Assembly (NCBI GenBank): GCA_041629655.1
Contig: JBFKMV010000001.1
Location: forward strand, 8,075-72,074
DNA: 64,000 nt
Direction: 5' to 3'
Origin: Candidatus Polarisedimenticolaceae bacterium
GTDB lineage: Bacteria; Acidobacteriota; Polarisedimenticolia; Polarisedimenticolales; Polarisedimenticolaceae
A program made the position numbers and the translations under genes. The notes under the pieces were generated by a model. It had not been told where the DNA came from. It saw only the letters and a program-made list of their open reading frames with translations, and did no database searches. Each line of letters starts with the position of its first letter. Position 1 is the stretch's first letter. Of the stretch, positions 4,245 to 60,007 are shown piece after piece.

Positions 4245-4562
4245 TCAGCCGCCGAGCTTCTTGACGTACTCGGCGACCGACTTGATCTGCTCGTGGGTCA
4301 GCTTGCCGTCGAACTTGGGCATCTTGCCCTTGCCCTCGAGGCTGACCTTCACGATGTCCTCTACCGAGGTCGCTTTTTGCCACTCGGCGTCGTTGAGGTT
4401 GGCCGAGCCCTTCGCCATCGCCTTGGCCACGCCGTCCTTGCCGTGGCACATCGCGCACTTCTTGTCGTAGAGCGCCTGGCCCTCGTCCTCGGCGAGCGCC
4501 GCCGGCGCGGCCGCGAGCGAGGCCAACAGCACCAACACCGCGATCCAGAACATCCGCTTCAT
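4245..4562 (-). CDS. Monohaem class I c-type cytochrome, secreted
   Basis: Signal peptide MKRMFWIAVLVLLASLAAAPAALA and a single CAMCH haem motif with a distal Met region (GKGKMPKF). GAGGAGG lies 5-7 nt before the ATG at 4562. Confidence 0.85.
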   Translation of the reverse strand: MKRMFWIAVLVLLASLAAAPAALAEDEGQALYDKKCAMCHGKDGVAKAMAKGSANLNDAEWQKATSVEDIVKVSLEGKGKMPKFDGKLTHEQIKSVAEYVKKLGG

Positions 4563-4642
4563 CTCGTCCTCCTCGGGTAGCACGGTCGGCCTGGGAGCGC
4601 GCGCACCGTGCAGGGTCTTCTTTCGAACCGATCCGGTCTCAA

Positions 4643-5389: not shown

Positions 5390-5854
5390 ATGCGAAGCCT
5401 GGAATTCGTGGTCGGATGCGTCGGAGTCGCCCTGGTCGCGCTGGGGCTGGCGATGGCCAGCGTGCCGTCCGGTTCGACGGCCGTGCTCGCCCAGACCACG
5501 ATCGCGGCCGCCGGGCCCGTCGGGTCGGCGCCCGTGCCCGACAAGGCCAAGCGGACGTCCAATCCGGTGCCCGCCACGGCGGATTCGGTCGCGGAAGGCA
5601 AGACGATCTTCAGCAGCCAGTGCACGATGTGCCACGGCGTGCTCGGCAGCGGCAAGGGCGACCTCGTCGAGCGGCTCGAGCTGCAGATGCCCGACTTCAC
5701 CGATCCCGCGTACCAGCGGGCGCGGACCGACGGCGAGCTGTTCTGGGTCATCAGGAACGGGCACGAGGAGATGCCCTCGCAGGCGAAGCGCTTCGACGAT
5801 CGGACCTGGTGGAACGTCGTCAACTACATTCGCACCCTTGAGCGGAAGGACTGA
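5390..5854 (+). CDS. Monohaem c-type cytochrome, secreted or membrane-anchored
   Basis: N-terminal hydrophobic segment and a single CTMCH motif. GELFWVIRNGHEEMP supplies the Met-ligand region typical of class I cytochromes c. Confidence 0.8.
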   Translation: MRSLEFVVGCVGVALVALGLAMASVPSGSTAVLAQTTIAAAGPVGSAPVPDKAKRTSNPVPATADSVAEGKTIFSSQCTMCHGVLGSGKGDLVERLELQMPDFTDPAYQRARTDGELFWVIRNGHEEMPSQAKRFDDRTWWNVVNYIRTLERKD

Positions 5855-7310: not shown

Positions 7311-8516
7311 ATGGTCTGCCGCCGGATCTGTGCATTGCTGACGCTGGCGCTCGTCGTCACCGCTTGCAGCGGCCCCGGGAGTCCGGAGGCGCCTCCGGTA
7401 GCCCAGGCCGTGAGCGAGATCGCGAGCCCCGCGGCCGCCGGAAGCGGCGAGCCGAATCTCACCGTCGGCGACGACGGGCGGTTGTACTTGAGCTGGATCG
7501 AGCCGTTCGACGACGGTCACGCCCTGCGCTTCGCGGTCCGCGAAGGAGCGGGTTGGAGCGCGCCGCGCACGATCGCGACCGGCCGGGACTGGTTCGTCAA
7601 CTGGGCCGACTTCCCCGCGCTGGCGGCGCTGGGCGACGGGACGCTGGCCGCGCACTGGCTGGCCAAGAGCGGACCCGGCACCTACGCCTACGACGTCTGG
7701 CTCGCCGTGTCGCGCGACGGGGGCGAGACGTGGAGCGAGCCGGTCCGGCCGCATGGCGACGGCACCCGGACCGAGCACGGGTTCGTGTCGCTGGTGCCGG
7801 CCGGGGACCGCTTCGGCGTGGCGTGGCTCGACGGGCGGGAGACGGCCGCGCAGCCACCGGGGCCGATGACGCTGCGCTACACCACGCTCGACCGCGAGGG
7901 CCGGGTGGGCCAGGAGCGCCTGATCGACGAGCGCGTCTGCGATTGCTGCCAGACGGAGGTGGTCCGGACCGCGGACGGCCTGGCCGCGTTCTTCCGCGAC
8001 CGTTCGACCGGGGAGATCCGGGACATCTACGTCGCCCTGGGCTCCGGCGACGACTGGTCCGAGTCGCGCGCCGTGCACGACGACGGCTGGAAGATCGCGG
8101 CCTGCCCGGTCAACGGGCCTGCGGCCGCGGCCTCCGGAGACGATCTCGCGGTCGCCTGGTTCACGGTTGCCGCGGGCGGCGAGGGCCAGGTCAAGCTGGC
8201 CTTCTCCGGGGACGGCGGCCGGAGCTTCGGTTCGCCGCTGCGCGTCGACGGCGGCAACCCGCTCGGACGCGTCGACCTCCTGCTGCACGACGACGGCTCG
8301 GCGCTGGTGAGCTGGCTCGAGCTGGGCGAGACGGCCGAGATCCGGGTCCGGCGGGTGGAGCCGTCGGGCGCGCTCGGTGAGCCGCGGGTCGCGGTGACGA
8401 CCAGCGGCGCGCGCTCGAGCGGCTTCCCGCGGCTGGCCCGGCTGGGCGGCGAGGTGTTCCTGGCCTGGACGGCGGCGGAAGAGCCCGCGCAGGTCAGGAC
8501 CGGCGTGCTGCGTTGA
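7311..8516 (+). CDS. BNR/Asp-box repeat (sialidase-fold) lipoprotein
   Basis: Lipoprotein signal MVCRRICALLTLALVVTAC. Asp-box SRDGGETW and a degenerate SGDGGRSF are present. The start inside the ORF was chosen at the signal peptide. Confidence 0.65.
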   Translation: MVCRRICALLTLALVVTACSGPGSPEAPPVAQAVSEIASPAAAGSGEPNLTVGDDGRLYLSWIEPFDDGHALRFAVREGAGWSAPRTIATGRDWFVNWADFPALAALGDGTLAAHWLAKSGPGTYAYDVWLAVSRDGGETWSEPVRPHGDGTRTEHGFVSLVPAGDRFGVAWLDGRETAAQPPGPMTLRYTTLDREGRVGQERLIDERVCDCCQTEVVRTADGLAAFFRDRSTGEIRDIYVALGSGDDWSESRAVHDDGWKIAACPVNGPAAAASGDDLAVAWFTVAAGGEGQVKLAFSGDGGRSFGSPLRVDGGNPLGRVDLLLHDDGSALVSWLELGETAEIRVRRVEPSGALGEPRVAVTTSGARSSGFPRLARLGGEVFLAWTAAEEPAQVRTGVLR

Positions 8517-10422
8517 CCGCGGCGCGGTCGTCCGCGCCGTCCGTCGCCGCCGCCTCGGCTTCCGGGCCGCCGCTGCCGTGCCCTTCCTGCGGGGCGGTAC
8601 GCCGCTCCGCCGCGCGGGCCGCGGGAGAGCGGCCGGTCAGCCACGCCGTATCCATCGGGTAGACCACCGGGTCGAAGACGACGAAGTACAGGTGCCAGAC
8701 CAGGATCGCCAGGCTGGCCAGCACCGCCTCGTAGAAGTGGATCGCGGTGGCGAGGTCGGTGATCCACTTCGGCAGCCAGCGCAGCACCAGGTTGTCGAAC
8801 CACAGCACGAAGCCGCTGATCGCCATCACGACGATGCCCCACATCAGCGCCAGGTACTCGAGCTTCTCGGGATACCCGAGCGTTCCCGTACGAGGGGGTT
8901 CCGGGCGGCGGCCGAAGAAGTACCGCACCCGCTCCACGAGCTCGTGGAGATCCTCCCGCCCGGGGCGCATCGCTGCGATACAGGCCCGGGCGCGGCGGTC
9001 CAGCGCCAGATGGAGCAGGTGGAACAGCAGCGCCGCCAGCATCACGATCGAGGCCCCGCGGTGCAGCCAGCCGCGTAGGCCCAGCGAGTCCTCCCAGGCC
9101 AGCACCGGCTGCGCCCACCGGGCCTCGGGGTACGTCAGCGCGAACCCGGTGTAGACCAGCACCACGAAGCTCACCATCAGGGTCGCGTGCGCGATGCGGA
9201 ACCCCGGCGACATCCGCTCGGCGGCGGTGGCATCGGCGGGAGGTCGCGTCGGGGGAGTGAGGACCTTGCGCCGCAGGTCGAGCAGGTTGTGCAGCAGCAT
9301 GCCGCCGACGGTCAGGTAGATCAACCACAGGTAGATCACGCGGACCCAGCGCACCGAGACGTGCTCCCCGTTGTCCGCGGTGAAGTGCACGGTGCCGATC
9401 GCGAAGCGTTGCCCGGCCCCGGGGTGGCACTGCCCGCACGTCGCGGCGAGATTGTCCTTGTGCGTGTGCGAGCGCGGGTCCGACGAGGGCAGCGTGTCGT
9501 GCACGCCGTGACACGACCCGCAGTGTGCCACGGTGAGCCTCCCGGAGCGGCCGGCCAGGCCGTGGTAGCTGTCCTGGTAGGCCGGCACCCTGTCCAGCGC
9601 CAGGTCGTACTTCTCGGCCAGCCTGAGGTCGCCGTGACAGCGACCGCAGGTCATCTTGGGGATGTTGGTGGCGTAGACGGGCGAGCCCTTTTCCCGCGGC
9701 GACACGATCCGGTGCTCGCCGTGACAGTCGGTGCACACGGGCGCCTCGCGCAGCCCGCGGGCCGAGGCGGTACCGTGGACGCTGCCGCGGTAGATCTCGG
9801 CGATCGATCCGTGACACGATCCGCAGGTCTCGGGAACGCGCTGGTGGAACACCGTCGAGCGCGGGTCGGAGGCCGGCTGGATCCCGTGGCTGCCGTGACA
9901 GTCGCTGCAGGTCGGCCCGGCGCCGCCCGCGGCGAGGAGCTGGCCGTGCACGCTCTTCAGGTACGCCTCGAGCGGCCGGACCAGCTTGATGCCGTAGCGC
10001 GCCACCTTCTCGGGGTCGGCGTGGCAGGAGCCGCAGGTCTCCGCCAGCCGCAACCCGTGGACCGGAGAGGCCTCGTCCGCCGCCGGCAGGACGGTGTGGA
10101 TCCCGCCGTGGCAGACCTGGCAGTCCGGTGCTTCCGCGGTGCCCTCGGCGCGCACCCGGCCGTGCACGCTGGCGCGATACTCCTCGACGATCCCGTCGTG
10201 GCAGGTCGCGCAGTCGACCTCGCCGGCCGTCTCGGCGTGCGGCACCTCGTCGGTTCCGGCGTGGCAATCGCCGCACTCGAGAAAGCCGTGCGCGCTGGCC
10301 TCGTAGCTCTCCGGTTCGAGCTCGTGGCAGTCGGCACAGGGTATCGCCTCGGCTGCGCGCGGCGGCGCGGCGGCGGCGCAGAGCAGCAACACCAGTAGCG
10401 TGACCCACGGAACGGCACGCAT
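8494..10422 (-). CDS. Multihaem cytochrome c (11 CXXCH) fused to a membrane dihaem cytochrome b domain (CbcL-like quinol oxidoreductase)
   Basis: Starts MRAVPWVTLLVLLLCAAAAPPRAAEA inside the artefactual 1370-aa ORF. It has 11 CXXCH motifs, followed by 4-5 TM helices with conserved His (IAHATL, FHLLHL, AIHFYE, WHLYF), as in FdnI/HydC-type cytochrome b. Confidence 0.85.
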   Translation of the reverse strand: MRAVPWVTLLVLLLCAAAAPPRAAEAIPCADCHELEPESYEASAHGFLECGDCHAGTDEVPHAETAGEVDCATCHDGIVEEYRASVHGRVRAEGTAEAPDCQVCHGGIHTVLPAADEASPVHGLRLAETCGSCHADPEKVARYGIKLVRPLEAYLKSVHGQLLAAGGAGPTCSDCHGSHGIQPASDPRSTVFHQRVPETCGSCHGSIAEIYRGSVHGTASARGLREAPVCTDCHGEHRIVSPREKGSPVYATNIPKMTCGRCHGDLRLAEKYDLALDRVPAYQDSYHGLAGRSGRLTVAHCGSCHGVHDTLPSSDPRSHTHKDNLAATCGQCHPGAGQRFAIGTVHFTADNGEHVSVRWVRVIYLWLIYLTVGGMLLHNLLDLRRKVLTPPTRPPADATAAERMSPGFRIAHATLMVSFVVLVYTGFALTYPEARWAQPVLAWEDSLGLRGWLHRGASIVMLAALLFHLLHLALDRRARACIAAMRPGREDLHELVERVRYFFGRRPEPPRTGTLGYPEKLEYLALMWGIVVMAISGFVLWFDNLVLRWLPKWITDLATAIHFYEAVLASLAILVWHLYFVVFDPVVYPMDTAWLTGRSPAARAAERRTAPQEGHGSGGPEAEAAATDGADDRAAVNAARRS

Positions 10423-10454
10423 CGGCGCTCTCCTTTCCGGCGGACCTCCAACGT

Positions 10455-10470
10455 AGCAGGCGCCGCGCCA
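10455..10470 (-). promoter_or_regulatory. Sigma-54-like promoter candidate for the 11-haem gene
   Basis: The minus strand reads TGGCGCGGCGCCTGCT. Spacing is correct, with one mismatch in the -12 box. An AAGGAG RBS lies between it and the ATG at 10422. Confidence 0.4.
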
Positions 10471-10547
10471 GCGACCTGTGGACAAAGCGCGTTGACAACT
10501 CGACCTGTCCGAAGTCCGCAGGCCTCGGGAGGGAGTCAGGTGTCGGA

Positions 10548-10563
10548 TGGCGCAGGTCTTGCT
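10548..10563 (+). promoter_or_regulatory. Sigma-54-like promoter candidate for the 19-haem gene
   Basis: TGGCGCAGGTCTTGCT has correct spacing. However, the predicted start site lies only about 5 nt before the ATG at 10579, giving a near-leaderless mRNA, so confidence is reduced. Confidence 0.35.
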
Positions 10564-10578
10564 GCCATCACCGTTCCC

Positions 10579-13386
10579 ATGACGACGCCACTGCGATCCG
10601 GGCCCGCCTCGCGCCGCGCCGGGAGATGGACAGCCGCGGTCTTGCTGCTGCTGTCGGTCCTCGCCCCCGCAGCCGCGCAGGAGAACGACGACTGCCTGAT
10701 GTGTCACGCCGACCCAGACCTCGTCGGCGAGCGCGCAGGGGCGGAGATCTCCGTTTACGTCGACGCGAAGGTCTACGCGGGTTCCGCGCACGCGGGCCTG
10801 GAATGCGTGATGTGCCACCAGGATCTCGCGGGCGAAGAGCTGCCGCACGGGGACGAGCCCGCGCGGGTGGACTGCTCGCCGTGCCACGACCGGCAGGCCG
10901 CCGAGCACGATCACAGCCTCCACGGCCGCGCGGCGCGGCGCGGCGACGAGCTGGCGCCGAGCTGCGCCACCTGCCACGGCACCCACGGCATCCGGTCCCA
11001 CAACGATCCGGGCTCGCCGACGGCCCTGCTGAACATTCCCCAGCTGTGCGGAAAATGTCACCACGAGGGCACCCCGGTCTCGCTGACCCACGAGATCCCG
11101 CAGGACCGCATCCTGGAGAACTACTCCGAGAGCATCCACGGGCAGGGCCTGTACGAGAAGGGGCTCATCGTCACCGCCGTCTGCACCTCCTGCCACACCT
11201 CGCACAACATCCTGCCCCATACCGAGAAGGACTCGAGCATCCACGCCGCCAACGTCGCGCGAACGTGCACCCAGTGCCACGGTCGGATCGAGGACGTGCA
11301 CCGCAAGGTCATCGAGGGGCGGCTGTGGGAGGAAGAGCCGCACAAGATCCCGGTCTGCGTCGACTGCCACTCCCCGCACAAGATCCGCCGCGTGTTCTAC
11401 CCGGCGGGCCTGGCCAACCAGGACTGCCTGAAGTGCCACGGGGACCCCGAGCTCGCCCTGGAACGGGACGGCGCGACGGTGTCGCTGTACGTGGACGGGG
11501 AGGTCTACGCGGCCACCGCGCACGCGACCGTCGGTTGCGCGCAGTGTCACACCGAGGTGCGGACGTCGCGCGAGCGACCCTGTGAGACGGTGACCGCGCC
11601 GGTCGATTGCAGCATCTGTCACGCCGAGCCGGTCAACGAGTTCTTCGGGAGCACCCACGGCACGCTGCTCGCCGCGGGCGACCACGATGCCCCCTCGTGC
11701 CAGGACTGCCACGCCCGGCACGCGACCCAGAAGAAGACCAATCCGACCTCGCCGACCTACCCGCGCAACGTGCCCGTGCTGTGCGCCAAGTGCCACCGCG
11801 TCGGCGAGCAGGCGGCGGTGCGGATCCACAGCGAGGTGCCGGACATCGTCCAGAGCTACCTCGACAGCATCCACGGCAAGGGGCTGATCCAGAGCGGTCT
11901 GGTGGTGACCGCGACCTGCGCCGACTGCCATTCGGCCCACGGCGAGCTGCCGCCGGACGATCCGCGGTCGACCGTCAACCCGGCCAACCTCAACCACACC
12001 TGCGGTACGTGCCACCGCGGGATCGAGGAGGTGTTCCGCTCGAGCATCCACGCCACCGGGACCCCGGGCGCGGGACGACACCTGCCGACCTGCGAGAACT
12101 GCCACTCCTCGCACACGATCAGCCGCACCGACGTGCCCGGGTTCCGGACGCTGATGATGGATCAGTGCGGCCGGTGTCACGAGACCGAGGCCGAGACGTT
12201 CTTCGACACCTTCCACGGCAAGGTGTCGCGGCTCGGCGCCGAGCGCGCGGCGAAGTGCTACGACTGCCACGGCACGCACAACATCCTGCCGGTCGAGAAC
12301 CCGGACTCGACGCTCAGCCGGTCCCACGTCGTCACCACCTGCGGGCAGTGCCACGACGCCGCGCACCGGCGTTTCGCCGGCTACCTGACCCACGCCACGC
12401 ACCACGACCCGGACAAGTACCCCTGGCTGTTCTGGACCTTCTGGGGCATGACGGCGCTGCTGGTCGGGACGCTGACCTTCGCGCTGATGCACACCCTGGC
12501 CTGGCTGCTGCGGCTGTGGCTCAACCGCGAGGAGTGGCGGGCGCACCGGGCCCACCGCTCGGGCAAGCTGGTGCGGCGCTTCACGCGGCTCCAGCGCGGC
12601 ATGCACATGACGATGCTGCTGAGCTTCTTCACCCTGGCGATCACCGGGATGACGCTAAAGTTCTCCTACATGGGCTGGGCGCAGGGCCTGTCGCGGGTGC
12701 TCGGCGGCTTCGAGGCCACGGGGTTCTTGCACCGGCTGGGGGCGGTGGTGCTGTTCGGGGTGTTCGTGGTGCACCTGGTCGACGTGCGGCGCAAGAAGCT
12801 CGCCGCCGGCCGGAGCTGGTGGGGCTTTCTGACCGGGCCGGACACGATCCTGTTCACGCGACGCGACCTGCGCGAGCTGTGGCAGTCGATCCGCTGGTTC
12901 GCGGGCGCCGGCCCGCGGCCGCGTTACGGGCGCTTCACCTACTGGGAGAAGTTCGACTACTTCGCCGTGCTGTGGGGCATCGTGGTGATCGGTTCGACCG
13001 GCCTGATCCTGTGGTTCCCCGAGCTGTTCACCCGGGTGCTGCCGGGCTGGTTCGTCAACGTGGCCACGATCATCCACAGCGACGAGGCGCTGCTGGCCGT
13101 CGCGTTCATCTTCACCGTGCACTTCTTCAACACGAACTTCCGCCCGGACAAGTTCCCGCTGGACACCGTGATCTTCACCGGCCGGGTCTCGCTCGAGGAG
13201 CTGCAGTACGACAAGCCGGACGAACACGCCGAGCTGCTGGCCTCCGGCGCGCTGGACCAGCACATCGTGCAGCCGCTGCCGCGGCCGGCCGAGCGCGCCG
13301 CGAAGACCTTCGCCTCGCTGGCCCTGGCGACCGGGCTGACCTTGATCGCGCTGATCGTCTACACGATGCTGATCGGCTACCGCTAG
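10579..13386 (+). CDS. Multihaem cytochrome c (19 CXXCH) fused to a membrane cytochrome b domain (CbcL-like, expanded)
   Basis: Signal peptide MTTPLRSGPASRRAGRWTAAVLLLLSVLAPAAAQ. It has 19 CXXCH motifs, followed by about 6 TM helices with conserved His (LMHTL, GMHMT, FLHRL, VVHLV, IIHSDE, TVHFF). Confidence 0.85.
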   Translation: MTTPLRSGPASRRAGRWTAAVLLLLSVLAPAAAQENDDCLMCHADPDLVGERAGAEISVYVDAKVYAGSAHAGLECVMCHQDLAGEELPHGDEPARVDCSPCHDRQAAEHDHSLHGRAARRGDELAPSCATCHGTHGIRSHNDPGSPTALLNIPQLCGKCHHEGTPVSLTHEIPQDRILENYSESIHGQGLYEKGLIVTAVCTSCHTSHNILPHTEKDSSIHAANVARTCTQCHGRIEDVHRKVIEGRLWEEEPHKIPVCVDCHSPHKIRRVFYPAGLANQDCLKCHGDPELALERDGATVSLYVDGEVYAATAHATVGCAQCHTEVRTSRERPCETVTAPVDCSICHAEPVNEFFGSTHGTLLAAGDHDAPSCQDCHARHATQKKTNPTSPTYPRNVPVLCAKCHRVGEQAAVRIHSEVPDIVQSYLDSIHGKGLIQSGLVVTATCADCHSAHGELPPDDPRSTVNPANLNHTCGTCHRGIEEVFRSSIHATGTPGAGRHLPTCENCHSSHTISRTDVPGFRTLMMDQCGRCHETEAETFFDTFHGKVSRLGAERAAKCYDCHGTHNILPVENPDSTLSRSHVVTTCGQCHDAAHRRFAGYLTHATHHDPDKYPWLFWTFWGMTALLVGTLTFALMHTLAWLLRLWLNREEWRAHRAHRSGKLVRRFTRLQRGMHMTMLLSFFTLAITGMTLKFSYMGWAQGLSRVLGGFEATGFLHRLGAVVLFGVFVVHLVDVRRKKLAAGRSWWGFLTGPDTILFTRRDLRELWQSIRWFAGAGPRPRYGRFTYWEKFDYFAVLWGIVVIGSTGLILWFPELFTRVLPGWFVNVATIIHSDEALLAVAFIFTVHFFNTNFRPDKFPLDTVIFTGRVSLEELQYDKPDEHAELLASGALDQHIVQPLPRPAERAAKTFASLALATGLTLIALIVYTMLIGYR

Positions 13387-13390
13387 CCCG

Positions 13391-14836
13391 TCAGGGCTGC
13401 AGCTGGCCCAGGATCTCCGGCTGTTCCTCCTCCATCGCCAGCAGGCTGTGGCAGGTGGAGCAGTCCTGGGAGATCGTCTCGCCGTCGGCGGTCGCGTGCT
13501 CGTCGTTGTGGCAGCGGAAGCAGCCGTCGAAGCTGGTGTGGCCGATGTGGTTGGGGTACGTGCCCCAGCCGATGTTCATCGTCGGGAACACGTTCCGGCA
13601 GTAGATGTCGCCCAGCACGCCCGCCGCCTCGGCGATCCGTGGTCCGTCGGAGCTTGCCAGCTCGGGGTAGTTCTCGCGGTAGAACGCCGTGATCCGCTCC
13701 GCGATCGCCTGCCGCGCCTCGTCATGCGACGCGTAGGACTCCTCGAGCGCCCGCAGGCCCTCGCGGCGGATGTAGGGCAGGGAGCGGTCGAGACGGCCCT
13801 CGGCGATCGCCTCGTCGATCGAGCGGTCGGGCAGCTTGTACACGTGGGTCGGCCGGTTGTGGCAGTCCACGCAGTCCATCTCGCGCCATTCCGGCTCCAC
13901 CTCGGGCGCGCCCGCCGCGCCCTGCTCCGCGGCCTGTCCGTTGGCCGCCCGTTGCGGGGGCAGCCAACGCTTGACCGTACCGTCCGGGAGCGTCAGCTCG
14001 ACCTCGTGGATCGTCTCGCGCGTCGCGTCGGCGCGGTAGCGGATACGGTTGGCCGGATCGACGTGCCAGTGGATGCCGTGGGACTTGCGTCCCTGGATCC
14101 CGCCCACCCGCAGCAGCAGCACCGACTTCAGCTCGGTGTTCTGCTCGTCCTCGGCGTAGTGGGTCAGCACCTTCAGCCGGTCGCCGACGAACTTGGTCGG
14201 CCAGTGGCACTGCTCGCAGGTCTCCCGCGCCGGCCGCAGGTTCTCGACCGGGGTCGGGATCGGCCGCGGGTAGAGATCGAAGGCCACGGCCACGACCTGC
14301 CAGGCGCCGGACAGCTTCGACTTGACGAACCAGTTCGCCCCGGGCCCGATGTGGCACTCGACGCACTTGACCCGCGCGTGGGGCGAGCTCTGGTAGGTCG
14401 TGAACTCGGGATCCATCACGGTGTGGCAGGCCTGCCCGCAGAACTCCGTCGAGTCCATCACCTCGACGCCCTTGTAGGTCGCGGTGGCCAGGATCACCAG
14501 GTTGACCCCCGACATGGCCAGGAACACCAGCACCGCCTTGCGGGTCGGCTTCCGGTTGAGGTCGACCACCGGGAACGTCGGGGCCGGCTCGCCGCGAGCC
14601 TCGGCGGCGCGTTCGCGGCGGCGCTCCCGCACGATGCCGACCGGGATCAGTGCCAGTCCGACCAGGAAGATCGCGGGCAGGATCAGGTAGGCCAGGATGC
14701 CGATGTAGGGGCCGCCCTCGTGGCCCACCAGTCCGATCGCGAACAGCGTCAGGATCAGCAGCGCGGCGGCCGTGGTGATCGCGGCGCCGACCAGGCTGAT
14801 CGCGTTCCGGGTCAACGCGATGAAGAACGTCCTCAT
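13391..14836 (-). CDS. Membrane-anchored NapC/NirT-related multihaem cytochrome (ImcH-like)
   Basis: Three N-terminal TM helices, then five CXXCH motifs (CVECH, CEQCH, CVDCH, CFRCH, CSTCH). One CX3CH (FCGQACH) sits at the position of the first NapC haem. Confidence 0.75.
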   Translation of the reverse strand: MRTFFIALTRNAISLVGAAITTAAALLILTLFAIGLVGHEGGPYIGILAYLILPAIFLVGLALIPVGIVRERRRERAAEARGEPAPTFPVVDLNRKPTRKAVLVFLAMSGVNLVILATATYKGVEVMDSTEFCGQACHTVMDPEFTTYQSSPHARVKCVECHIGPGANWFVKSKLSGAWQVVAVAFDLYPRPIPTPVENLRPARETCEQCHWPTKFVGDRLKVLTHYAEDEQNTELKSVLLLRVGGIQGRKSHGIHWHVDPANRIRYRADATRETIHEVELTLPDGTVKRWLPPQRAANGQAAEQGAAGAPEVEPEWREMDCVDCHNRPTHVYKLPDRSIDEAIAEGRLDRSLPYIRREGLRALEESYASHDEARQAIAERITAFYRENYPELASSDGPRIAEAAGVLGDIYCRNVFPTMNIGWGTYPNHIGHTSFDGCFRCHNDEHATADGETISQDCSTCHSLLAMEEEQPEILGQLQP

Positions 14837-14924
14837 GGCACCTCGCTCAGCCGGTTTTCGGGGGCGACCCCGTCCGGGGGAATCATGCTAGATGGAATCG
14901 CGCCGCGGCGCCCGTGGATCCGCT

Positions 14925-16145
14925 TCAGCTCCAGCGCAGCCCGAGTTGCTGGAGCATCGCGGCCAGCCCCTCGCCGGATGCCGGTAGGCACGGCAGCAAC
15001 CGCGCGGCATGGGCCTTGACCCAGTCGTTCGCCTCGGGCCCCGCCGCCGGCGGGCCCTCGAGACCCAGCAGGCGTTGCCATTCGGCGCGTCGTTCCGACT
15101 GGTAGATCTCGAACAGCTTCGGCGTGCCGTCGCGCCGCAGGGCGGACCCGATCCGGTCGGCGAGGTCCCACGCCTCGCGCAAGCCGACGTTCATGCTCTG
15201 CGCGCCCACCGGACCGGTCACGTGCGCGGCGTCGCCGGCCAGCCACACGTGGCCACTCCCGAACTGCTCGGCCAAGCGGCGCTCGAACCGCGTGTCGGTG
15301 GCCCAGAAGACCTCGGCCGGACGGGGCTCGAACCACGGGGCCCGGGAGCTGAGCAGCGTCTCCAGCGAGGAACCGCCCCGGTCCGGCGCCCGGTCCGGCT
15401 GCGGCGCCTCGCGCTCGACCTGGAAGCTCCAGCGCCCGCGAGCGCCGGCCATCGGCCACAGCACGTTCAGCATGTTCTCATGGAACACCACCCGCATCTC
15501 GCCGCCCAGGTCGAACGGTGCGCGGAACTCGAACACCGCGAAGCTCTCGGCGCCCCCGTGGTCCTCGAAGCGGGTGCCGAGGCTGCGCCGCGTGAACGAA
15601 TGATAACCGTCGGCGCCGATCAGGAACGAGCAGTTGCTCTCGAACCGCTTGTCGACGATCCACTCGGTGCGGGCGATCGGGTAGCCCAGCGACACCCGGT
15701 CGAGCCGCCCCAGCTCGCAGCCCACCCCGCCCTCGGCCCGCTCCTCGATCGCCAGCAGCTGGTGGTTCCACAGCACGCGTACCCCGCGCTCGCTCAGCCG
15801 TTCCTCGAGCTCTCCCTCCAGCTTGCTCTGCGGCAGCACCAGCACGAACGGGAAACGGCCGCCGAGCGGTTCCAGCTCGACGGCGGCCCGCTGGGTCTTG
15901 CCGTCGTAGAACCCGATCCGCGTGATCCGTTGCCCCTGCTCGACCAGCGGTTCCGCGAGCCCCAGCTCGTCGAGCATCGACAGCGTCGCGGGGTGCAGGG
16001 CCAGGGCGTAGCTGTGCGCCGAGCCGATCCAGTCGCGGTCGATGATCTGCACGGTGACGTCCTGCTCGGCCAGGCACAGCGCGGCGAACAGCCCCACCGG
16101 CCCCGCGCCCACGATCGTCACGTCGGTCTGGCGCTTCGGTTTCAT
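14925..16145 (-). CDS. FAD-dependent monooxygenase (UbiH/PHBH-like)
   Basis: N-terminal VTIVGAGPVGLFAALCLAE Rossmann motif and a later GDAAHVTGPVGAQSMN FAD-binding motif. Confidence 0.8.
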   Translation of the reverse strand: MKPKRQTDVTIVGAGPVGLFAALCLAEQDVTVQIIDRDWIGSAHSYALALHPATLSMLDELGLAEPLVEQGQRITRIGFYDGKTQRAAVELEPLGGRFPFVLVLPQSKLEGELEERLSERGVRVLWNHQLLAIEERAEGGVGCELGRLDRVSLGYPIARTEWIVDKRFESNCSFLIGADGYHSFTRRSLGTRFEDHGGAESFAVFEFRAPFDLGGEMRVVFHENMLNVLWPMAGARGRWSFQVEREAPQPDRAPDRGGSSLETLLSSRAPWFEPRPAEVFWATDTRFERRLAEQFGSGHVWLAGDAAHVTGPVGAQSMNVGLREAWDLADRIGSALRRDGTPKLFEIYQSERRAEWQRLLGLEGPPAAGPEANDWVKAHAARLLPCLPASGEGLAAMLQQLGLRWS

Positions 16146-16161
16146 GGTGTACTCCCCGGAC

Positions 16162-18186
16162 TCAGAAGGTGAGCCCCGCGCGGAGCGACACGATCTGACC
16201 CTTGTAGTCCAGGCCGTCGTTGCTGAACAGCACGGCGCCCAGCCCGTCCAGCCGGCGGCCCCCGTCGTCGTACTCGAAATCGCGGTAGTCGGCCCCGAAG
16301 TACAGGCCGTTCGGAAGGAGGTAGGTCAGACCCAGCTCCCAGTCGTCGTAGTCCTGCGCGATCACCTCGTCGTTGACCAGGCCGGAGGCGTCGCCGAACA
16401 GCAGGTTGTGGCCTTCGGACTCGGTCATCGTGTAGCGGGCGTGGATCTTCCACGCCTCGCTCCAGCGGTAGTTGAGGTAGGCCGAGAGCTGCGTGTTGTC
16501 GTTCTGGAACACGGAGTCGCCGTCGTCCGCCAGATTGAAGCCGGCGAGGTCGAACCGCACGCCGACGCGCGTGTCGATCTCCTGCTCGGCGTAACGCAGC
16601 ATGTAATCGACGTTCTCGTTGGCCTTGTGCCAGAACGCCACCGAGTGCGTGGTGCCCTCGGCGGTGCCGTCGTAGAACGAGCCGGGGCTGCGGAGGTCCG
16701 GGGCGTTGTTGTCGTGGTCGAAGTCGAGGTATCCCAGGTCGATCCGCATCTCGGGCTGCGGCAGGAATGCGGCGCGGATCCGGGTATGCGAGGTCTCCCG
16801 CGGGGCCACGGCGTTGAACGGCTGCGTGATGTCGCCGTTCTCGATGTCGGCGTTGAGGCGAAACCACTTCACCGGCCGCAGCGACAGGCCGAAGATCACG
16901 GTCTCGTCGTCGTCGGAGTCGAGCTCGGTGTCGCGCAACAATCCGCCGAAGCCGTTGCGGTCGAGCGTGCGGTCGATGGTGCGATAGCCGGCCCGCAGCG
17001 CCACCGTCCGCGCCGGGCGCGCTTCGACCAACGCGGTCAGCGTGCTCAGCTCGTAGTCGAGGCGGGTGTCCGAGGACGGCACCCCGTCGCCGTCGATGTC
17101 GTCCTCCAGGCCGTCGCCGTCGAGGTCGCGCGTAAGCACGCCGTCCAGCTCGCGGTCCAGGTTGCGGAACTGCAGGTGCAGGTCGACCGCCTCGACGAGC
17201 TTGACCGTCAGATCGACGTCGACCAGCATCGTGTCGCCCTCGGCCTCGGAGCGGCTGGATCCGCCGACAACCGAGAACGGGTCGCCGTTGAAATCGAGAC
17301 CCGTCGCGTCCAGCCCGACGCGGCTGTCGAGCTGCTCTTCGCCGAGCAGCGTACCGATCAGCGAGACCGCGAGGCGCACCCGCTTGCCGAGACCGGCGCC
17401 GACCCGGATCGTGGTCAGATCGACGTCCCCGTCGTCGCGCTGGAGCCAGTCGTAGGAGTCGAGTCGCGACAGCGCTCCGGCCTCGAGCCCGGCGTTGTCC
17501 TCGGTGATGTTCCGGAAACGGTTGTCGTAGCTGCGCCGGCTCTGGCGGAACAACAGGTTGACCGGCCCGACCTCGACCGTGGCGGCGACGCTGAACAGCT
17601 CGTGCTCGGCGTCGAGCGGCGTGTCCAGACGGAACAGGTTGCGCTCGACGTCCTTCATGAACAGGGAGTTGCCGGTGCGTTCCCCGCGCTGGTAGTTGAA
17701 CGAGAGTTGGACGCGCTCCGACGGAAAGGCCCGGAACGTCAGATCGGTCATCCGGCGCCGGGCGTCCCACGCCGCACCGTCCTCGTTGTTGACCAATCCG
17801 AACAGGTCGTACAGGTAGGCCTGCTGCCAGTGCGTCGCGCGTAGATCGTAGACGTTGCGCCGGCCGAGCTGGAACGAGCCGCGCCGGTAGGGATCTCCCA
17901 GGCCACTGAGCTCGAGCCGCGCGCGGTCGAGCAGCTTCGAGTCCAGGTCGCTCCAGTCGAGCTCCAGGTTGGCCAGCCGCACGCCCGAATCGAGACCGTC
18001 GAAATCCTCGTCGTACTTCCGCCGGCTCCCGTCGCGGTCCACGTCGCGATAGACCAGCTCGACCGAGCCGCTGGGGCTCCGCTTGTCCTCGTCCTCCGCG
18101 CGGACCCCGGAGTCGGCTCCGAGCAGCAGCCCGGCGAGGGCGAGACCGGTCAGGGCGAAACCGAGGCCAGGGTGTCTCGTCGTCAT
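16162..18186 (-). CDS. Large outer-membrane beta-barrel, MtrB/PioB-type partner of the decahaem cytochrome
   Basis: Signal peptide, 674 aa, alternating beta-strand pattern rich in D/N/Y/R, and a C-terminal ...LRAGLTF. It starts 3 nt after the stop of the decahaem gene. Confidence 0.7.
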   Translation of the reverse strand: MTTRHPGLGFALTGLALAGLLLGADSGVRAEDEDKRSPSGSVELVYRDVDRDGSRRKYDEDFDGLDSGVRLANLELDWSDLDSKLLDRARLELSGLGDPYRRGSFQLGRRNVYDLRATHWQQAYLYDLFGLVNNEDGAAWDARRRMTDLTFRAFPSERVQLSFNYQRGERTGNSLFMKDVERNLFRLDTPLDAEHELFSVAATVEVGPVNLLFRQSRRSYDNRFRNITEDNAGLEAGALSRLDSYDWLQRDDGDVDLTTIRVGAGLGKRVRLAVSLIGTLLGEEQLDSRVGLDATGLDFNGDPFSVVGGSSRSEAEGDTMLVDVDLTVKLVEAVDLHLQFRNLDRELDGVLTRDLDGDGLEDDIDGDGVPSSDTRLDYELSTLTALVEARPARTVALRAGYRTIDRTLDRNGFGGLLRDTELDSDDDETVIFGLSLRPVKWFRLNADIENGDITQPFNAVAPRETSHTRIRAAFLPQPEMRIDLGYLDFDHDNNAPDLRSPGSFYDGTAEGTTHSVAFWHKANENVDYMLRYAEQEIDTRVGVRFDLAGFNLADDGDSVFQNDNTQLSAYLNYRWSEAWKIHARYTMTESEGHNLLFGDASGLVNDEVIAQDYDDWELGLTYLLPNGLYFGADYRDFEYDDGGRRLDGLGAVLFSNDGLDYKGQIVSLRAGLTF

Positions 18187-18189
18187 CGG

Positions 18190-19032
18190 CTACTCCTCCA
18201 GGAAGAACGGGCTGGTGTTCGACCCGTGGATCGCGGTGTGACACGCGGTGCACTTCTCGTTCAAGAAGCGCGGCACGCTGTGCCAGCCCGGCGTGACGCT
18301 GGCGCTGTGGCACTGGTAGCACAGGTTGACCTGCGGCTCGTGCTTGAGCAGGTGGCGGTTCGGCGAGCCGTGGACCTCGTGGCACGCGGCGCAGCCGTCC
18401 ACGAACACGACGTCGTGCGAGTAGACGTAGGGCACTGCCTTGTCGAAGTGGCAGTCCCCACAGGTGTCCCGGAACAGCGACCGGTCGGTGCGCAGGGACT
18501 TGGTGGCGTGCGGGTTGTGACATTTCGCGCACTCGGCGATGGGGTGGCTACGGGGCAGGTCGAACTGGGCCGCGATGGCCTGGTGGCACCGCGAGCACAG
18601 CTCGCTGCCCTCGGCGCGCAGCAGCTTGTCGTGGCTGCCGTGCGGATCGTGGCAGTCGTTGCAGCCGACGTCGCCGAGCCTGTGGAGGCTCTGCATCGAG
18701 GAGAAATGAGCCTCCTGCTTGCGATGGCAGCTCAGGCAGGTCTCGGAGGCCTGCCGCGCCGACAACTCGCCGAAGCGGACGATCCTGGCGGGGTCACCGC
18801 CCTCCTCGACGTGTGCGGTGCCGGGTCCGTGGCAGCTCTCGCACCCTCGCTCCTCGTCCCAATACGGACTGCGGGCGTGGGGGGTACGCGCGAACGCGGC
18901 GGCAATCTCGTCGTGGCAGGCCGCGCACGTCTCGCTGCCGACGTATTCTTCCTCGGCACCGACCGGCGCCGCTAGGGGAACCGCGCAGCACAAGGCGACC
19001 AGCGGTAAAAGCCGTCGGAACATCCGGTGCAT
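18190..19032 (-). CDS. Periplasmic decahaem c-type cytochrome, MtrA/DmsE/PioA family
   Basis: Signal peptide MHRMFRRLLPLVALCCAVPLAAPVGA and exactly 10 CXXCH motifs in about 255 mature residues. A GGAGGAGG RBS precedes the ATG at 19032. An alternative ATG lies at 19023. Confidence 0.85.
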   Translation of the reverse strand: MHRMFRRLLPLVALCCAVPLAAPVGAEEEYVGSETCAACHDEIAAAFARTPHARSPYWDEERGCESCHGPGTAHVEEGGDPARIVRFGELSARQASETCLSCHRKQEAHFSSMQSLHRLGDVGCNDCHDPHGSHDKLLRAEGSELCSRCHQAIAAQFDLPRSHPIAECAKCHNPHATKSLRTDRSLFRDTCGDCHFDKAVPYVYSHDVVFVDGCAACHEVHGSPNRHLLKHEPQVNLCYQCHSASVTPGWHSVPRFLNEKCTACHTAIHGSNTSPFFLEE

Positions 19033-19087
19033 GACCTCCTCCGTGGCGACATCGGGCAGGACCGACCGCACCCGAACCGTAGCGCAA

Positions 19088-19096
19088 TTTATACCA
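19088..19096 (-). promoter_or_regulatory. Extended -10 sigma-70 promoter candidate for the decahaem/barrel operon
   Basis: The minus strand reads TGGTATAAA (TGn + TATAAA), about 55 nt upstream of the ATG. The same TGGTATAWW 9-mer recurs upstream of secA and EF-G. Confidence 0.3.
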
Positions 19097-19233
19097 GCGA
19101 CCCGTGGGAAACGGGGTCGCTCCATCGACAACGCGGACCCAATCGCTCCGAAACACGCCTGGCGCCGGGAATGCTACCGTATCCGACCCCGGCGGTGGAA
19201 GCCTCGCCGCGCGTCCGGGGGAGGAAGGGTGCG

Positions 19234-21153
19234 ATGGCCTCAGCGGCGAATCCGGGAGACACTGGCCAGGCGGCCACGGCGCAGTGGCAGGAGCGCCACG
19301 CCTCCAAGCTGGCCACGCTGGAGCAGGCCGTGCGCGCGATCCCGCCGGGCCGCTGCGTGATGATCGGGTCCGGGGCCGCCGAGCCCCACGCGCTGGTCGA
19401 GGCGATGGTGGAGCACGGCACCCACCTCGCCGACAACGACGTCGTGCACCTGCTGACGCTCGGGCCCGCGCCCTACGTGCGGCCCGGGATGGAGCGGCGC
19501 TTCCGCCACACCGCGTTCTTCATCGGCAAGAACGTGCGCGAGGCGGTCCAGGACGGCCGCGCCGACTTCATGCCGGTGTTCCTGTCCGAGATTCCGTCGC
19601 TGATCCGCTCGCGCCGCGTGCGGGTCGACGTGGCGATGATCCAGGTCAGCCCGCCGGACCGCCACGGCTACGTCAGCCTCGGCGTGGCCGTGGACGTGGT
19701 GCGCGCCGCGGTCGATTCCGCCGAGCTGATCCTGGCCGAGGTCAACCCGCGAATGCCCCGCACGCTGGGGGACTCGTTCGTCCACGTGGACCGGATCCGG
19801 TACCTGGTGCCCGTGGACTACGAGCTGCCCGAGCTGGATCCCAGCCCGCCGGACGAGGTCTCGGCCGAGATCGGGCGTCACGTGGCGAGCCTGATCCCCG
19901 ACGGCGCCACGATCCAGGCCGGGATCGGCGGCATCCCCAACGCGGTGATGGCCGCGCTGGCCGGGCGCAACGACCTCGGCGTCCACACCGAGATGTGCTC
20001 GGACGGCATGATGGAGCTGGTCGAGGCCGGCGTGATCAACGGCCGGCGCAAGACCTTGCTGCCGGGCAAGCTGGTGACCTCGTTCCTGATGGGCAGCCGC
20101 CGGCTCTACGACTGGGCCCACGACAACCCGGCGGTCGAGATGCGTCCCAGCGAGTTCACCAACGACCCCTTCACGGTGGCGCGCAACGACCACATGGTGG
20201 CCGTCAACTCCGCGCTGGCCGTCGACCTGACCGGGCAGGTCGCCGCCGACACGCTGATGGGGCGGTTCTTCTCGGGAATCGGCGGCCAGGTCGACTTCAT
20301 CCGCGGCGCCGCGCGCAGCCGCGGGGGCCGCGCGATCATCGCCCTGCCCTCGACGGCGCGGAACGGGACGGTGAGCCGGATCCGGCCGGTGCTCGAGGAG
20401 GGCGCGGGGGTCGTGACCAGCCGGGGCGACGTGCACGACGTGGTGACGGAATACGGCGTCGCCGACCTGTGGGGCAAGAACATCCGGCAGCGCGCGATGG
20501 CGCTGATCGAGATCGCGCATCCCGACTTCCGCGGCGAGCTGCTGGCGGCGGCCAAGGCGCGCCGGTTCGTGTTCCCCGACCAGGTCGCGCCGCGGGCCGT
20601 GTATCCCTGGGAGGAGGAGCGGCAGGTCGCCCTGGCCGACGGCACCCGGGTGACCGTGCGTCCGGTCCGGCTGACCGACGAGAAACCGCTCCAGGACCTG
20701 TTCTACCGGTTGTCCGACGAGTCGACCTACCGGCGCTTCATGGCCTTCAAGCGCGTGCATCCCCACGAGGACATGCAACGTCTGGTCTCGCTCGACTACC
20801 AGCAGAACATGGGGCTGGTGGTCTCGATCCGCGAGGGCGGGCGCGAGGAGATCCTGGCCATGGCGCGCTACGACGTCGACCCGGCAACCCAGCTGGCCGA
20901 CATCGCGTTCGTGGTGCGTGACGAGTGGCAGGGCCGGGGCATCGGGACGCTGCTGATGCGGCGGATGGGCGAGATCGCGCGCGCGCGTGGGCTGGCGGGG
21001 TTCACCGGCGACGTGCTGGTGACGAACAAGCCGATGCTGGCCGTGTTCCAGAACAGCGGCCTGGCGATCCGCATGGAGTTGCGCCAGGGCAGCTATCACC
21101 TGACGGCCACGTTCGAGGACGACCCCGAAGCCCGCGAGCAGCCCGAGGCCTGA
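19234..21153 (+). CDS. Acetyl-CoA hydrolase/transferase family domain fused to a C-terminal GNAT acetyltransferase domain
   Basis: The N-terminal 480 aa resemble the 4-hydroxybutyrate CoA-transferase/acetyl-CoA hydrolase family (GSGAAEPHAL, EMCSDG, GIGGQVDF). The C-terminus has the GNAT motif VRDEWQGRGIGTLLM. Start chosen at the ATG after GGAGGAAGG. Confidence 0.75.
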   Translation: MASAANPGDTGQAATAQWQERHASKLATLEQAVRAIPPGRCVMIGSGAAEPHALVEAMVEHGTHLADNDVVHLLTLGPAPYVRPGMERRFRHTAFFIGKNVREAVQDGRADFMPVFLSEIPSLIRSRRVRVDVAMIQVSPPDRHGYVSLGVAVDVVRAAVDSAELILAEVNPRMPRTLGDSFVHVDRIRYLVPVDYELPELDPSPPDEVSAEIGRHVASLIPDGATIQAGIGGIPNAVMAALAGRNDLGVHTEMCSDGMMELVEAGVINGRRKTLLPGKLVTSFLMGSRRLYDWAHDNPAVEMRPSEFTNDPFTVARNDHMVAVNSALAVDLTGQVAADTLMGRFFSGIGGQVDFIRGAARSRGGRAIIALPSTARNGTVSRIRPVLEEGAGVVTSRGDVHDVVTEYGVADLWGKNIRQRAMALIEIAHPDFRGELLAAAKARRFVFPDQVAPRAVYPWEEERQVALADGTRVTVRPVRLTDEKPLQDLFYRLSDESTYRRFMAFKRVHPHEDMQRLVSLDYQQNMGLVVSIREGGREEILAMARYDVDPATQLADIAFVVRDEWQGRGIGTLLMRRMGEIARARGLAGFTGDVLVTNKPMLAVFQNSGLAIRMELRQGSYHLTATFEDDPEAREQPEA

Positions 21154-21168: not shown

Positions 21169-22626
21169 TCAGGCGCGGGGCTCGGGCGGCTTCAGCGGCA
21201 GCTCGAGGGCGACGACGGCGCCGCCGGTGTCGGCCGGGACCAGCCCGATCCAGCCGCCGTGGGCCTCGACGACCTGCCGGGCGATGGCCAGTCCCAGGCC
21301 GGTCCCGTAGTTGCGGGTGGTGAAGAACGGCTCGAACACGCGCTCCCGGATCTCGCCGGGGACGCCGGGCCCGTTATCGGCGACGGCCACGCGGCAGCGT
21401 CCGTCCTCGTTGCTCAACGAGACCTCGATGCGCCCCTTGCCGTCCATCGCCTGCGCCGCGTTAAGCAGCAGGTTCTGGAACACGTCCCGCAACTGCTCGG
21501 CGTCGGCCAGCACCTGCAGATCGTCGCCCGTGATCTCGACCTCCACGCCCCGCAGGCCGGGGTCGCGGCGCAGCAGCCGGGCGGTGTCCCGGATCAGCGC
21601 CGCGAGCTGCACCGGCGCCGGCTCCGGGCGCCGCGGCCGGGCGTAGCGCAGCAGGTCCTGGACCTTTTCGTTCAGTCCGTCGATCCGGCTCAGGATGCTC
21701 CCGATCACCTCCCGGTCGACGCTGTCTCCGGGCAGCCGCCCGCGGATGATCTGAAGCGCACCGGCGATGCCGGCCAGCGGGTTCTTGACCTCGTGGGCCA
21801 CCACCGCGGCGAGCTGACCCAGCTGGTGCAGCGCCTCGCGGTTGCGCAGCTCCTCCTCGATCTGCTTGCGCGCCGTGATGTCGCTGCGGATGGCCAGGTA
21901 CTGGTACGGCTTGCCGTCGGCGTCCAGGAACGGCACGATCGTCGTGTCGACCCAGTAGATCGTCCCGTCCTTGGCCCGGTTGCGGATCTCGCCGCGCCAG
22001 ACCCGGCCCTTGCCGATCGTTCCCCACAGGTCGCGGAAGAACGCCTTGGGGTGGTGCCCCGAGTTGACGATGCGATGGTCCTGCCCCAGCAGCTCCTCGC
22101 GCGGGTACTTGCTGATCTCGCAGAACTTGTCGTTGACGTAGTGGATGATGCCCTTGCGGTCGGTGATCGCCACGATCGCGGCCTGGTCGATGGCCTGCTT
22201 GATGTCCCGCAGGTCCTTCAGGGATTTCCGCAGCTCGTCCTCGACCTGGCGCTGCTCGGTCACGTCCTCGCCGGAGCTCAGGGTGCCGCTGATCCGGCCC
22301 TCGCCGTCGCGGAGCAGGGCGTTGTGCCAGGCGATCACGCGCTCGTCCCCGGACCGTGTCACGACGGGATTCTCGAACCTCTCGGCCAGCTGCTCCCGTC
22401 CCTCGATCAGCCCCCGATGCACCTCGCGAACCTGCTCCCGCAGCCGCTCCGGGACGAACTCCTCGATCCAGTCGCGGCCGATCAGCTCCTGCGGGGGGTA
22501 GCCCAGGACCTGGCCGCCCTTGCGGTTGATCAGCGAGATCCGGCCCCGGGCGTCCAGCGCCAGGATGATGACCTCGGCGATGTCCAGGAAGTCCTGCCCA
22601 TCGCGCAGGGGGGGAGAATCGGACAT
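21169..22626 (-). CDS. Cytoplasmic PAS-domain sensor histidine kinase (NtrB/AtoS-like)
   Basis: Two PAS domains, an H-box [12 protein letters not shown], an N-box ([10 protein letters not shown]) and G-boxes ([14 protein letters not shown]). No TM segment. Start at MSDSPPL chosen inside the ORF. Confidence 0.8.
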
Positions 22627-22718
22627 CCTCGTCGTGACTCCGCGGGTTTCGGGGGCTCGGGACCGTTCGATTCGCCATCCTAGCGGCGGCCCCGGGACCC
22701 TGCAAACCGCTCCGGGCG

Positions 22719-22734
22719 TGGAACGGTTCTTGCT
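22719..22734 (+). promoter_or_regulatory. Sigma-54 promoter candidate for the NtrC-family regulator gene
   Basis: TGGAACGGTTCTTGCT has correct spacing. It lies in the divergent kinase/regulator intergenic region, about 85 nt upstream of the ATG at 22817. Confidence 0.5.
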
Positions 22735-22816
22735 CGAACGGTCGGGAGAAACCCGCCGGACGGCCACGGGGCTGCTTGGCCCGCGCCCGGGCGGCCGGTA
22801 CCATGGGGTCGTGAAG

Positions 22817-41919: not shown

Positions 41920-46341
<4,422 letters not shown>

Positions 46342-59800: not shown

Positions 59801-59861
59801 CGGGCGCTCCTTACGCGCGTTTCGAGGTTTCTGGTGTCCCGGGGTGCCGGAAGAAAGCGGG

Positions 59862-59870
59862 AATATACCA
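59862..59870 (-). promoter_or_regulatory. Extended -10 promoter candidate for the EF-G...holB operon
   Basis: The minus strand reads TGGTATATT, about 60 nt upstream of the ATG. A TAAGGAG RBS follows. Confidence 0.3.
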
Positions 59871-59978
59871 TAGCGGCGCGGCCGGCGCGGGCGCGCGCGC
59901 GGCGCCTTTTCGACGCTTTCGACTCCGTTTCGGCGCCCGCCCCCGACACCGCCCACGGCCCGGATTTTCGGCGCTTTC

Positions 59979-60007
59979 TTGACCGGGGCGGGGCCCGGAC
60001 CTAGGTT
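59979..60007 (+). promoter_or_regulatory. Sigma-70 promoter candidate
   Basis: TTGACC-N17-TAGGTT, 43 nt upstream of the ATG at 60050. Confidence 0.3.

Follow-up and report, generated by a model that had tools for sequence, protein, structure and literature searches.

Here we describe a gene that encodes a 19-haem cytochrome c fused to a cytochrome b. It occupies positions 10579..13386 on the forward strand of a 64,000-nt stretch of contig JBFKMV010000001.1 from a Candidatus Polarisedimenticolaceae bacterium (hereafter, the window, whose positions are used for its gene coordinates). The gene is intact and its product is an inner-membrane protein in which a periplasmic chain of 19 c-type haems is joined to a two-haem cytochrome b anchor. 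This protein belongs to the catalogued, uncharacterised 19-haem subclass of the CbcL/MtrH/MtoC family and most probably serves as an inner-membrane quinol/quinone:cytochrome c oxidoreductase.

The reading frame extends from an ATG at 10579 to a stop codon at 13384-13386 and gives a product of 935 aa; the longest open reading frame begins at 10492, and the public gene call uses a GTG start at 10540, which yields a 948-aa protein. Residues 39-588 of the 935-aa product contain 19 CXXCH motifs, and 38 of its 39 Cys residues are found inside these motifs, a pattern that is not a matter of chance. A motif scan found neither CX3-4CH nor CXXCK variants in the protein. Residues 1-33 (10579..10677, + strand) read as a signal peptide, with an RR-containing n-region, a hydrophobic core (peak at residues 14-32) and AAAQ. 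The protein thus has the exported N-terminal domain with multiple CX2CH motifs that is typical of the family, in which the published range is 3-23.

A long open reading frame of this kind could, in principle, be an artefact, with a cytochrome c gene and a cytochrome b gene fused through a frameshift or a mis-assembly. The only support that we found for it is the existence, among distant representatives, of stand-alone b domains with 0-2 haems, some of which may themselves be fragments, and we consider an artefact extremely improbable. Many independent assemblies contributed to the full-length homologues obtained by protein search, which number at least 120, have 895-1050 aa and share 61-73% identity, and the identical 948-aa protein, flanked by the same two neighbours, is present in at least six NCBI assemblies. 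In a genome scan that used one genome per species, at least 597 genomes carried a relative; the proteins of the genome relatives are about 48-67% identical to the 19-haem protein. The best 80 of these genomes form the set of relatives behind the neighbour tallies given below, and the motif spacing in them is almost invariant. The same 19-motif layout is seen in 65 of them, with 21 motifs in eight and 23 in four (the other three, which include truncated open reading frames, have 18, 20 and 20). The gene, its c/b junction (about 12250-12490) included, is also tiled without indels by unitigs that come from four metagenome runs of three studies. The frameshift or assembly join that the original prediction had named as one of two possible refutations was therefore not found. 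The DNA of the window occurs in marine and sediment metagenomes, and the host is probably a marine-sediment member of the Acidobacteriota with a relationship to Ca. Polarisedimenticolia. Its SecA shares 71-74% identity with proteins labelled Ca. Polarisedimenticolaceae and Acidobacteriia.

The C-terminal part of the protein, residues 615-935 (12421..13383, + strand), is a six-transmembrane (TM), FdnI-like di-haem cytochrome b domain. Its hydrophobic helices are located at about 617-644, 675-693, 716-734, 795-813, 828-846 and 914-932, and the loops predicted to be cytoplasmic are strongly positive. An AlphaFold2 model of the full protein, built on a 48-sequence alignment, had a predicted local distance difference test (pLDDT) score of 64.6 and a predicted template modelling (pTM) score of 0.45; only the membrane domain was confident (pLDDT 75-88), so that the global geometry is unreliable. 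In a Foldseek search, the best match of this model was FdnI (1kqf_C; E 2.3e-4, probability 1.00, template modelling score 0.78 on the target). A b-domain profile built from 29 b domains of both paralogue types (see below) matched the same chain with E 1.7e-10; a phmmer search of the Protein Data Bank (PDB) with the single sequence had given no match for the b domain, and FdnI was reached only with the family profile. The four haem-binding His residues of FdnI (H18, H57, H155 and H169) align onto H676, H718, H833 and H848, the candidate ligands here, all of which are invariant in the 48 close homologues and in the alignment across both paralogue types. Two further His residues are also invariant: H638, which lies in the extra first helix, and H732, 14 residues past H718. 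TM2 bears H718 and H732, and TM4 bears H833 and H848, 15 residues apart. The profile also had a weak match to a region of cytochrome b6 (E 0.018), in which both H718 and H732 align with His residues of b6.

FdnI, the cytochrome b556 of Escherichia coli formate dehydrogenase-N (1KQF chain C), shares with the domain described here the TM1-4 fold and the four haem His residues, whereas one additional helix precedes this core in the 19-haem protein, another one follows it, and H638 and H732 are extra. FdnI, of 217 aa, is moreover a subunit in its own right that receives electrons from an Fe-S protein; in the 19-haem protein, the donor or acceptor is the c-haem chain, which is covalently fused. The six-TM HydC/FdnI-like C-terminal domain and the conserved b-haem His residues are those of the CbcL/MtrH/MtoC family. 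Sequence and fold together establish the domain structure, the cofactor-binding residues and the topology of the protein. The original prediction that a single polypeptide combines 19 c-type haem motifs with a b-type membrane domain of roughly six helices has been borne out, and the haem-ligating His pattern on which it depended is complete.

The distances between successive motifs are 37,23,30,28,45,28,30,23, then 37,24,30,28,45,28,30,25 and, finally, 30,28. In an internal alignment, residues 31-274 and 275-521 are 42% identical (E 3e-70). From the spacing and the self-alignment, the protein consists of an 8-haem module present twice, a tri-haem unit and the membrane domain (8 + 8 + 3 haems). 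Module 1 covers residues 34-274 with haems 1-8 (10678..11400), module 2 covers residues 275-521 with haems 9-16 (11401..12141), and the membrane-proximal tri-haem unit, with its 25/30/28 spacing, covers residues 522-600 with haems 17-19 (12142..12378), all on the + strand. The 25/30/28 spacing is common to 11-haem relatives and to 9-haem relatives of the MtoC type. Judging by this alignment, the 19-haem protein arose by internal duplication. The repeat proposed in the original prediction, in which the series starting with CLMCH restarts at CLKCH, is real, although its unit comprises 8 haems rather than 9-10.

Apart from the His residues of the motifs themselves, exactly 19 His residues in the c-domain are conserved at 90% or more. 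Three additional conserved His residues belong to the invariant peptide YLTHATHHD (12382..12408, + strand), which connects the last c-haem to the first TM helix and is one of the two most conserved peptides picked by the tool. The number of conserved His residues suffices for, and fits, a predicted bis-His ligation of every c-haem, as has been measured for the c-domain of CbcL, whose nine haems are all bis-His (PMC9129911). For the start of the 8-haem module (residues 37-163), the only solved structure with significant sequence similarity is PDB 28pb chain A ('Cytochrome c', 278 aa, a recent deposit; E 2.4e-8, or 7e-12 with the profile).

Chain length varies among the relatives. Insertions of two or four haems in module 1 account for the 21-haem proteins (loci L004, L005, L009, L010, L014, L029, L057 and L074) and the 23-haem proteins (L023, L028, L050 and L055), and one further representative (P0143) has 22 haems in two complete 11-haem units. 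These distinct lengthenings of the c-domain suggest recurrent selection on chain length.

The family to which the 19-haem protein belongs was surveyed by Zhong & Shi (Front Microbiol 2018; PMC6295460), who described homologues of CbcL, MtrH and MtoC with 3-23 CX2CH motifs and lengths of 416-1034 aa in 15 phyla. Most of these have six TM helices, their b-haem His residues are conserved and linkage to mtrAB or mtoAB is frequent (PMC6295460). Table S2 of that survey contains more than 15 proteins with 19 motifs at the spacing seen here, including Caldithrix abyssi Cabys_319, Gemmatimonadetes MAF27600.1 and proteins from Solibacteraceae SbA3, Ignavibacteria, Marinilabiliales and Syntrophaceae, as well as 11-motif proteins and one with 23 motifs (PMC6295460). 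Caldithrix abyssi and Marinifilaceae SPP2 are cultured organisms among the carriers of 19-haem homologues in that table. Its 19-motif members have 906-957 aa, 19 CX2CH motifs spaced 37,23,30,28,45,28,30,23,37,23/24,30,28,45,28,29/30,25,30,28, and six TM helices; we found no architectural difference between them and the protein described here. The contrast drawn in the original prediction between nine haems in CbcL and 19 in this protein is therefore true, but it is not new: such proteins have been on record, with this exact spacing, since 2018, and the novelty that it implied does not hold.

An exhaustive search with the b domain yielded 371 clusters (50% identity) with E < 1e-30. The 98 cluster representatives examined have between 0 and 22 motifs, most commonly 9 or 11, and some of those with few motifs may be fragments. 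With 9-haem representatives of CbcL-type or MtoC-type spacing, the b domain shares 35-44% identity (E 1e-52 to 1e-71). Homology to the named family members is seen by proxy, through representatives assigned to them by motif spacing and published motif positions. In CbcL of Geobacter sulfurreducens (GSU0274), too, an N-terminal multihaem c-domain, periplasmic and bis-His, is followed in the same polypeptide by a di-haem b domain of six helices that resembles HydC and FdnI. CbcL has nine haems spaced 23,25,23,24,29,28,43,28, however, and the 19-haem protein falls outside CbcL sensu stricto, which is defined by nine haems. Reduction of low-potential acceptors and a PpcA partner are known only for CbcL, which reduces PpcA (PMC9129911). 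MtoC and MtrH (from Gallionella, Dechloromonas and Rhodoferax) belong to the same family and share the last-haem spacing of 25,30,28, so that in this respect the protein is of the MtoC/MtrH type rather than the Geobacter CbcL type. They have nine haems, their genes are often located beside mtoAB or mtrAB, and MtoC is a proposed quinone reductase of Fe(II) oxidisers. The Hmc complex of sulfate reducers also combines a haem-rich periplasmic cytochrome (HmcA, 16 haems) with a membrane cytochrome b. Unlike the protein described here, HmcA is soluble and is one of several separate subunits in its complex. An HmcA-like assignment was rejected, as the sequence matches were weak and partial.

The gene next to the 19-haem gene encodes a second c/b fusion of 642 aa with 11 CXXCH motifs and five predicted TM helices (8494..10422, - strand), whose match to PF01292 (prokaryotic cytochrome b561/Ni_hydr_CYTB; 56.7 bits) is above the cut-off. 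The two genes are divergent, as had been noted from the sequence, and separated by 156 bp (10423..10578). No sigma-70-like promoter or terminator-like site was found in this intergenic region, and no Rfam families were found in the window. The 11-haem paralogue, which has an 8 + 3 haem layout, is colinear with residues 305-869 of the 19-haem protein (33% identity, E 1e-92). The 19-haem protein therefore corresponds to the 11-haem architecture with an extra N-terminal 8-haem module.

On its other side, the 19-haem gene converges, at a distance of 4 bp, with a gene for an ImcH-type inner-membrane cytochrome of 481 aa (13391..14836, - strand). The product has the family pattern of three N-terminal TM helices (peaks near residues 19, 51 and 101), a CX3CH motif (CGQACH at 133) and 5-9 CX2CH motifs, here five (at 158, 207, 322, 439 and 459). 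The same pattern is seen in entries of Table S3 of the 2018 survey, e.g. Gemmatimonas SM23_52 (PMC6295460). Further along the same strand are a putative outer-membrane beta-barrel of 674 aa with a signal peptide (16162..18186, - strand) and an MtrA/DmsE-like periplasmic decahaem cytochrome with 10 CXXCH motifs (18190..19131, - strand), whose true start is probably a Met near 19032. Pfam and NCBIfam searches assigned no family to the barrel, which has weak Porin_4 and OMP_b-brl matches and, unlike its counterparts at MtoC/MtrH loci, is not recognisable as MtrB/MtoB. The ImcH-type gene is co-oriented with this pair and located 1.3 kb from it (13391-19131, - strand), and the 2018 survey reported no mtrAB or mtoAB genes adjacent to imcH (PMC6295460). 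Between the barrel gene and the ImcH-type gene lies a gene for a flavin adenine dinucleotide (FAD)-dependent monooxygenase of the UbiH/aromatic-hydroxylase-like type (14925..16145, - strand; PF01494). The monooxygenase may have a part in quinone modification; in none of the 80 relatives was such a gene found near the 19-haem gene.

At distances of 3-6 kb from the genes for the c/b fusions, two small monohaem cytochromes c of class I are encoded at 4245-4583 (- strand) and 5390-5854 (+ strand); of these, only the latter was seen to have a signal peptide. By analogy with the role proposed for MtoD, both are candidates for soluble periplasmic carriers. Among the called open reading frames of the window, there was no MtrC-like surface cytochrome and no PpcA-like triheme gene. 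A PAS-domain histidine kinase and a sigma-54-dependent response regulator are encoded divergently at 21169-24184, separated from the cytochrome cluster by a single gene for an acetyl-CoA hydrolase/transferase (19027-21153), and are possible regulators. The remainder of the window consists of chromosomal housekeeping genes. In addition to a full-length SecA gene (41984-44782, + strand, 932 aa), there is, at 90-3198 (+ strand), an HlyD-like gene followed by a second, shorter SecA-like one, whose 663-aa product lacks the wing/scaffold and SEC-C domains. In an EF-G-like open reading frame at 57707-60739 (- strand), the GTPase domain begins only at residue 321 of 1010; either its start has been over-called in a high-GC frame or the protein has a long N-terminal extension.

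The quinone chemistry of the 19-haem protein, its partners and the direction of electron flow can be proposed by analogy with the family. The signal peptide exports the N-terminal 600 residues. The b domain would oxidise quinol or reduce quinone, with electrons passing through the membrane by way of the two b haems and being exchanged with partners in the periplasm through the c-haem chain. In this genome, such partners are likely to be the MtrA-like decahaem protein and the beta-barrel, whose genes lie at a distance of 3-6 kb, and the 11-haem paralogue and the ImcH-type cytochrome may serve as parallel entry points. Such multiple entry points would resemble the situation in Geobacter, where several inner-membrane cytochromes operate at different potentials.

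We favour an outward flow of electrons, i.e. quinol oxidation and metal reduction, because of the ImcH-type neighbour and of what has been proposed for related Acidobacteriota. Metagenome-assembled genomes of marine Acidobacteriota have been reported to contain clusters of multihaem cytochrome and beta-barrel genes, syntenic with those of the metal reducer Thermoanaerobaculum, that have been proposed to function in metal reduction (PMC8528874). In the case of an inward flow, the protein would act as a quinone reductase, as proposed for MtoC, and the quinone pool would receive electrons through the barrel/decahaem conduit, their source being Fe(II), other cells or reduced sulfur minerals. A decahaem cytochrome and a barrel with no MtrC-like surface cytochrome in the window make up a layout of the MtoAB/PioAB type, the membrane-proximal 25/30/28 spacing is that of MtoC/MtrH and not of Geobacter CbcL, and, in the 2018 survey, oxidising and reducing members could not be told apart by any sequence feature (PMC6295460). 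However, the ImcH family has so far been implicated only in quinol oxidation (PMC6295460), it is metal reduction that has been discussed for related marine Acidobacteriota and for Thermoanaerobaculum (PMC8528874), and the window showed neither Cyc2 nor genes for carbon fixation. Given a conduit without MtrC and membrane-proximal haems that are MtoC-like, inward flow has some probability, though less than outward flow.

In the relatives, the gene neighbourhood was tallied up to 10 kb on either side of the 19-haem gene, and only 36 of the 80 loci have 8 kb of sequence on both sides. A second c/b fusion, usually with 11 or 9 haems, is found in 42 of the 80 loci (21 of the 36 with 8 kb on both sides). 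The orientation of this paralogue varies, so it is the association that is conserved and not the divergent arrangement. An ImcH-type gene is present in 19 of the 80 loci. The shorter paralogue is thus the usual companion, often with an ImcH-type gene alongside, which suggests a conserved module with several entry points between the quinone pool and the periplasm. Other recurrent neighbours are cytochrome b/b6-type genes (13 loci), NapC-like-anchored 17-21-haem cytochromes (nine loci), 12-16-haem cytochromes (10 loci) and 8-haem cytochromes (seven loci); examples are L004:5419-6906, L004:7649-9823, L011:9200-10588 and L017:4866-6818.

Several observations weigh against the assignment of the 19-haem protein as an oxidoreductase of this family that is connected to an outer-membrane conduit. 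An MtrA-like gene is found within 10 kb in only six of the 80 relatives, and the link to such a conduit is therefore not conserved in the family; contig ends cut many of these loci, which makes the absence of MtrA-like genes weakly supported. In the window itself, the barrel had no MtrB_PioB match even at E 5, and the decahaem protein scored 190.6 bits against TIGR03508 (the DmsE family), just under the cut-off of 192.2. The PF01292 score of the 19-haem protein was 21.9 bits against a cut-off of 30.1; the family-profile and fold evidence for its b domain is positive. H638 and H732 lie outside the two-haem scheme of FdnI; they could mean that the haem on the cytoplasmic side is ligated differently or that a third b haem is bound, or they could belong to the quinone site. 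In the literature, we found no experiment on any 19-haem member, and no transcript data were found for the 19-haem gene.

The scarcity of MtrA-like genes also bears on a different role, outside extracellular electron transfer, in which the 19-haem protein would be a periplasmic hub or buffer that connects the quinone pool with soluble periplasmic reductases or oxidases. The 74 relatives that have no MtrA-like gene within 10 kb are consistent with such a role, as are the genes beside the 19-haem gene in the relatives, most of which encode other large multihaem cytochromes of the periplasm, cytochromes of the b/b6 type and Fe-S proteins. Octahaem tetrathionate reductases are also among the proteins encoded by marine Acidobacteriota (PMC8528874). 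We nevertheless consider this role unlikely: a barrel and a decahaem gene are close by in the window, CbcL, the sole characterised relative, serves extracellular acceptors (PMC9129911), and with so few loci preserved on both sides the missing neighbours count for little. An oxidoreductase that feeds, or draws on, a network of periplasmic or outer-membrane cytochromes is the interpretation that we prefer.

The original prediction had also proposed that a haem chain of this length might span much of the periplasm. In its strong form, the 19 haems would make up one rigid, membrane-anchored wire from the quinol site across most of the periplasm, in direct contact with the outer-membrane decahaem protein and with no need for a soluble carrier. 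In MtrA, 10 haems span about 80 Å, or about 8 Å per haem, and 19 haems in line would reach roughly 150 Å, so that a periplasm-spanning wire is physically plausible. The chain has approximately 30 residues per haem and a predicted all-bis-His ligation, parts of it resemble in sequence NrfB and MtrA, which are linear wires, as well as the c7 'nanowire' triheme domain, and the repeated independent growth of the chain (to 19, 21, 22 and 23 haems) indicates that length itself may be selected. On the other hand, 16 haems can also pack compactly, as in HmcA. The AlphaFold2 model, with the scores given above, is no guide to the global shape, and a Foldseek search with the full model found no significant match, wire-like or otherwise, for the c-domain. 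Two monohaem cytochromes c that could act as soluble carriers are encoded nearby, an MtrA-like gene is missing from the vicinity in most relatives, and the characterised CbcL passes its electrons to a soluble carrier (PMC9129911). A single rigid wire of this kind is, on balance, quite improbable.

As it stands, the finding extends a known catalogue and reveals no new kind of system. It concerns the inner-membrane quinol dehydrogenases, which are the least understood step of extracellular electron transfer. The 19-haem form occurs in at least several hundred species-level genomes, its carriers include such abundant marine-sediment groups as Woeseiaceae, Thermoanaerobaculia/Polarisedimenticolia and Gemmatimonadota, and its conservation across phyla, at 48-67% identity, is unusually high. 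If the 19 haems did form a wire, these bacteria would possess an unbroken conductor made of protein that connects the quinone pool with the cell surface and needs no diffusible carrier, and the lengthening of the chain from 11 to 19, 21, 22 and 23 haems would amount to its tuning to the width of the periplasm. A chain that bridges the periplasm would change the accepted, shuttle-based picture of this process.

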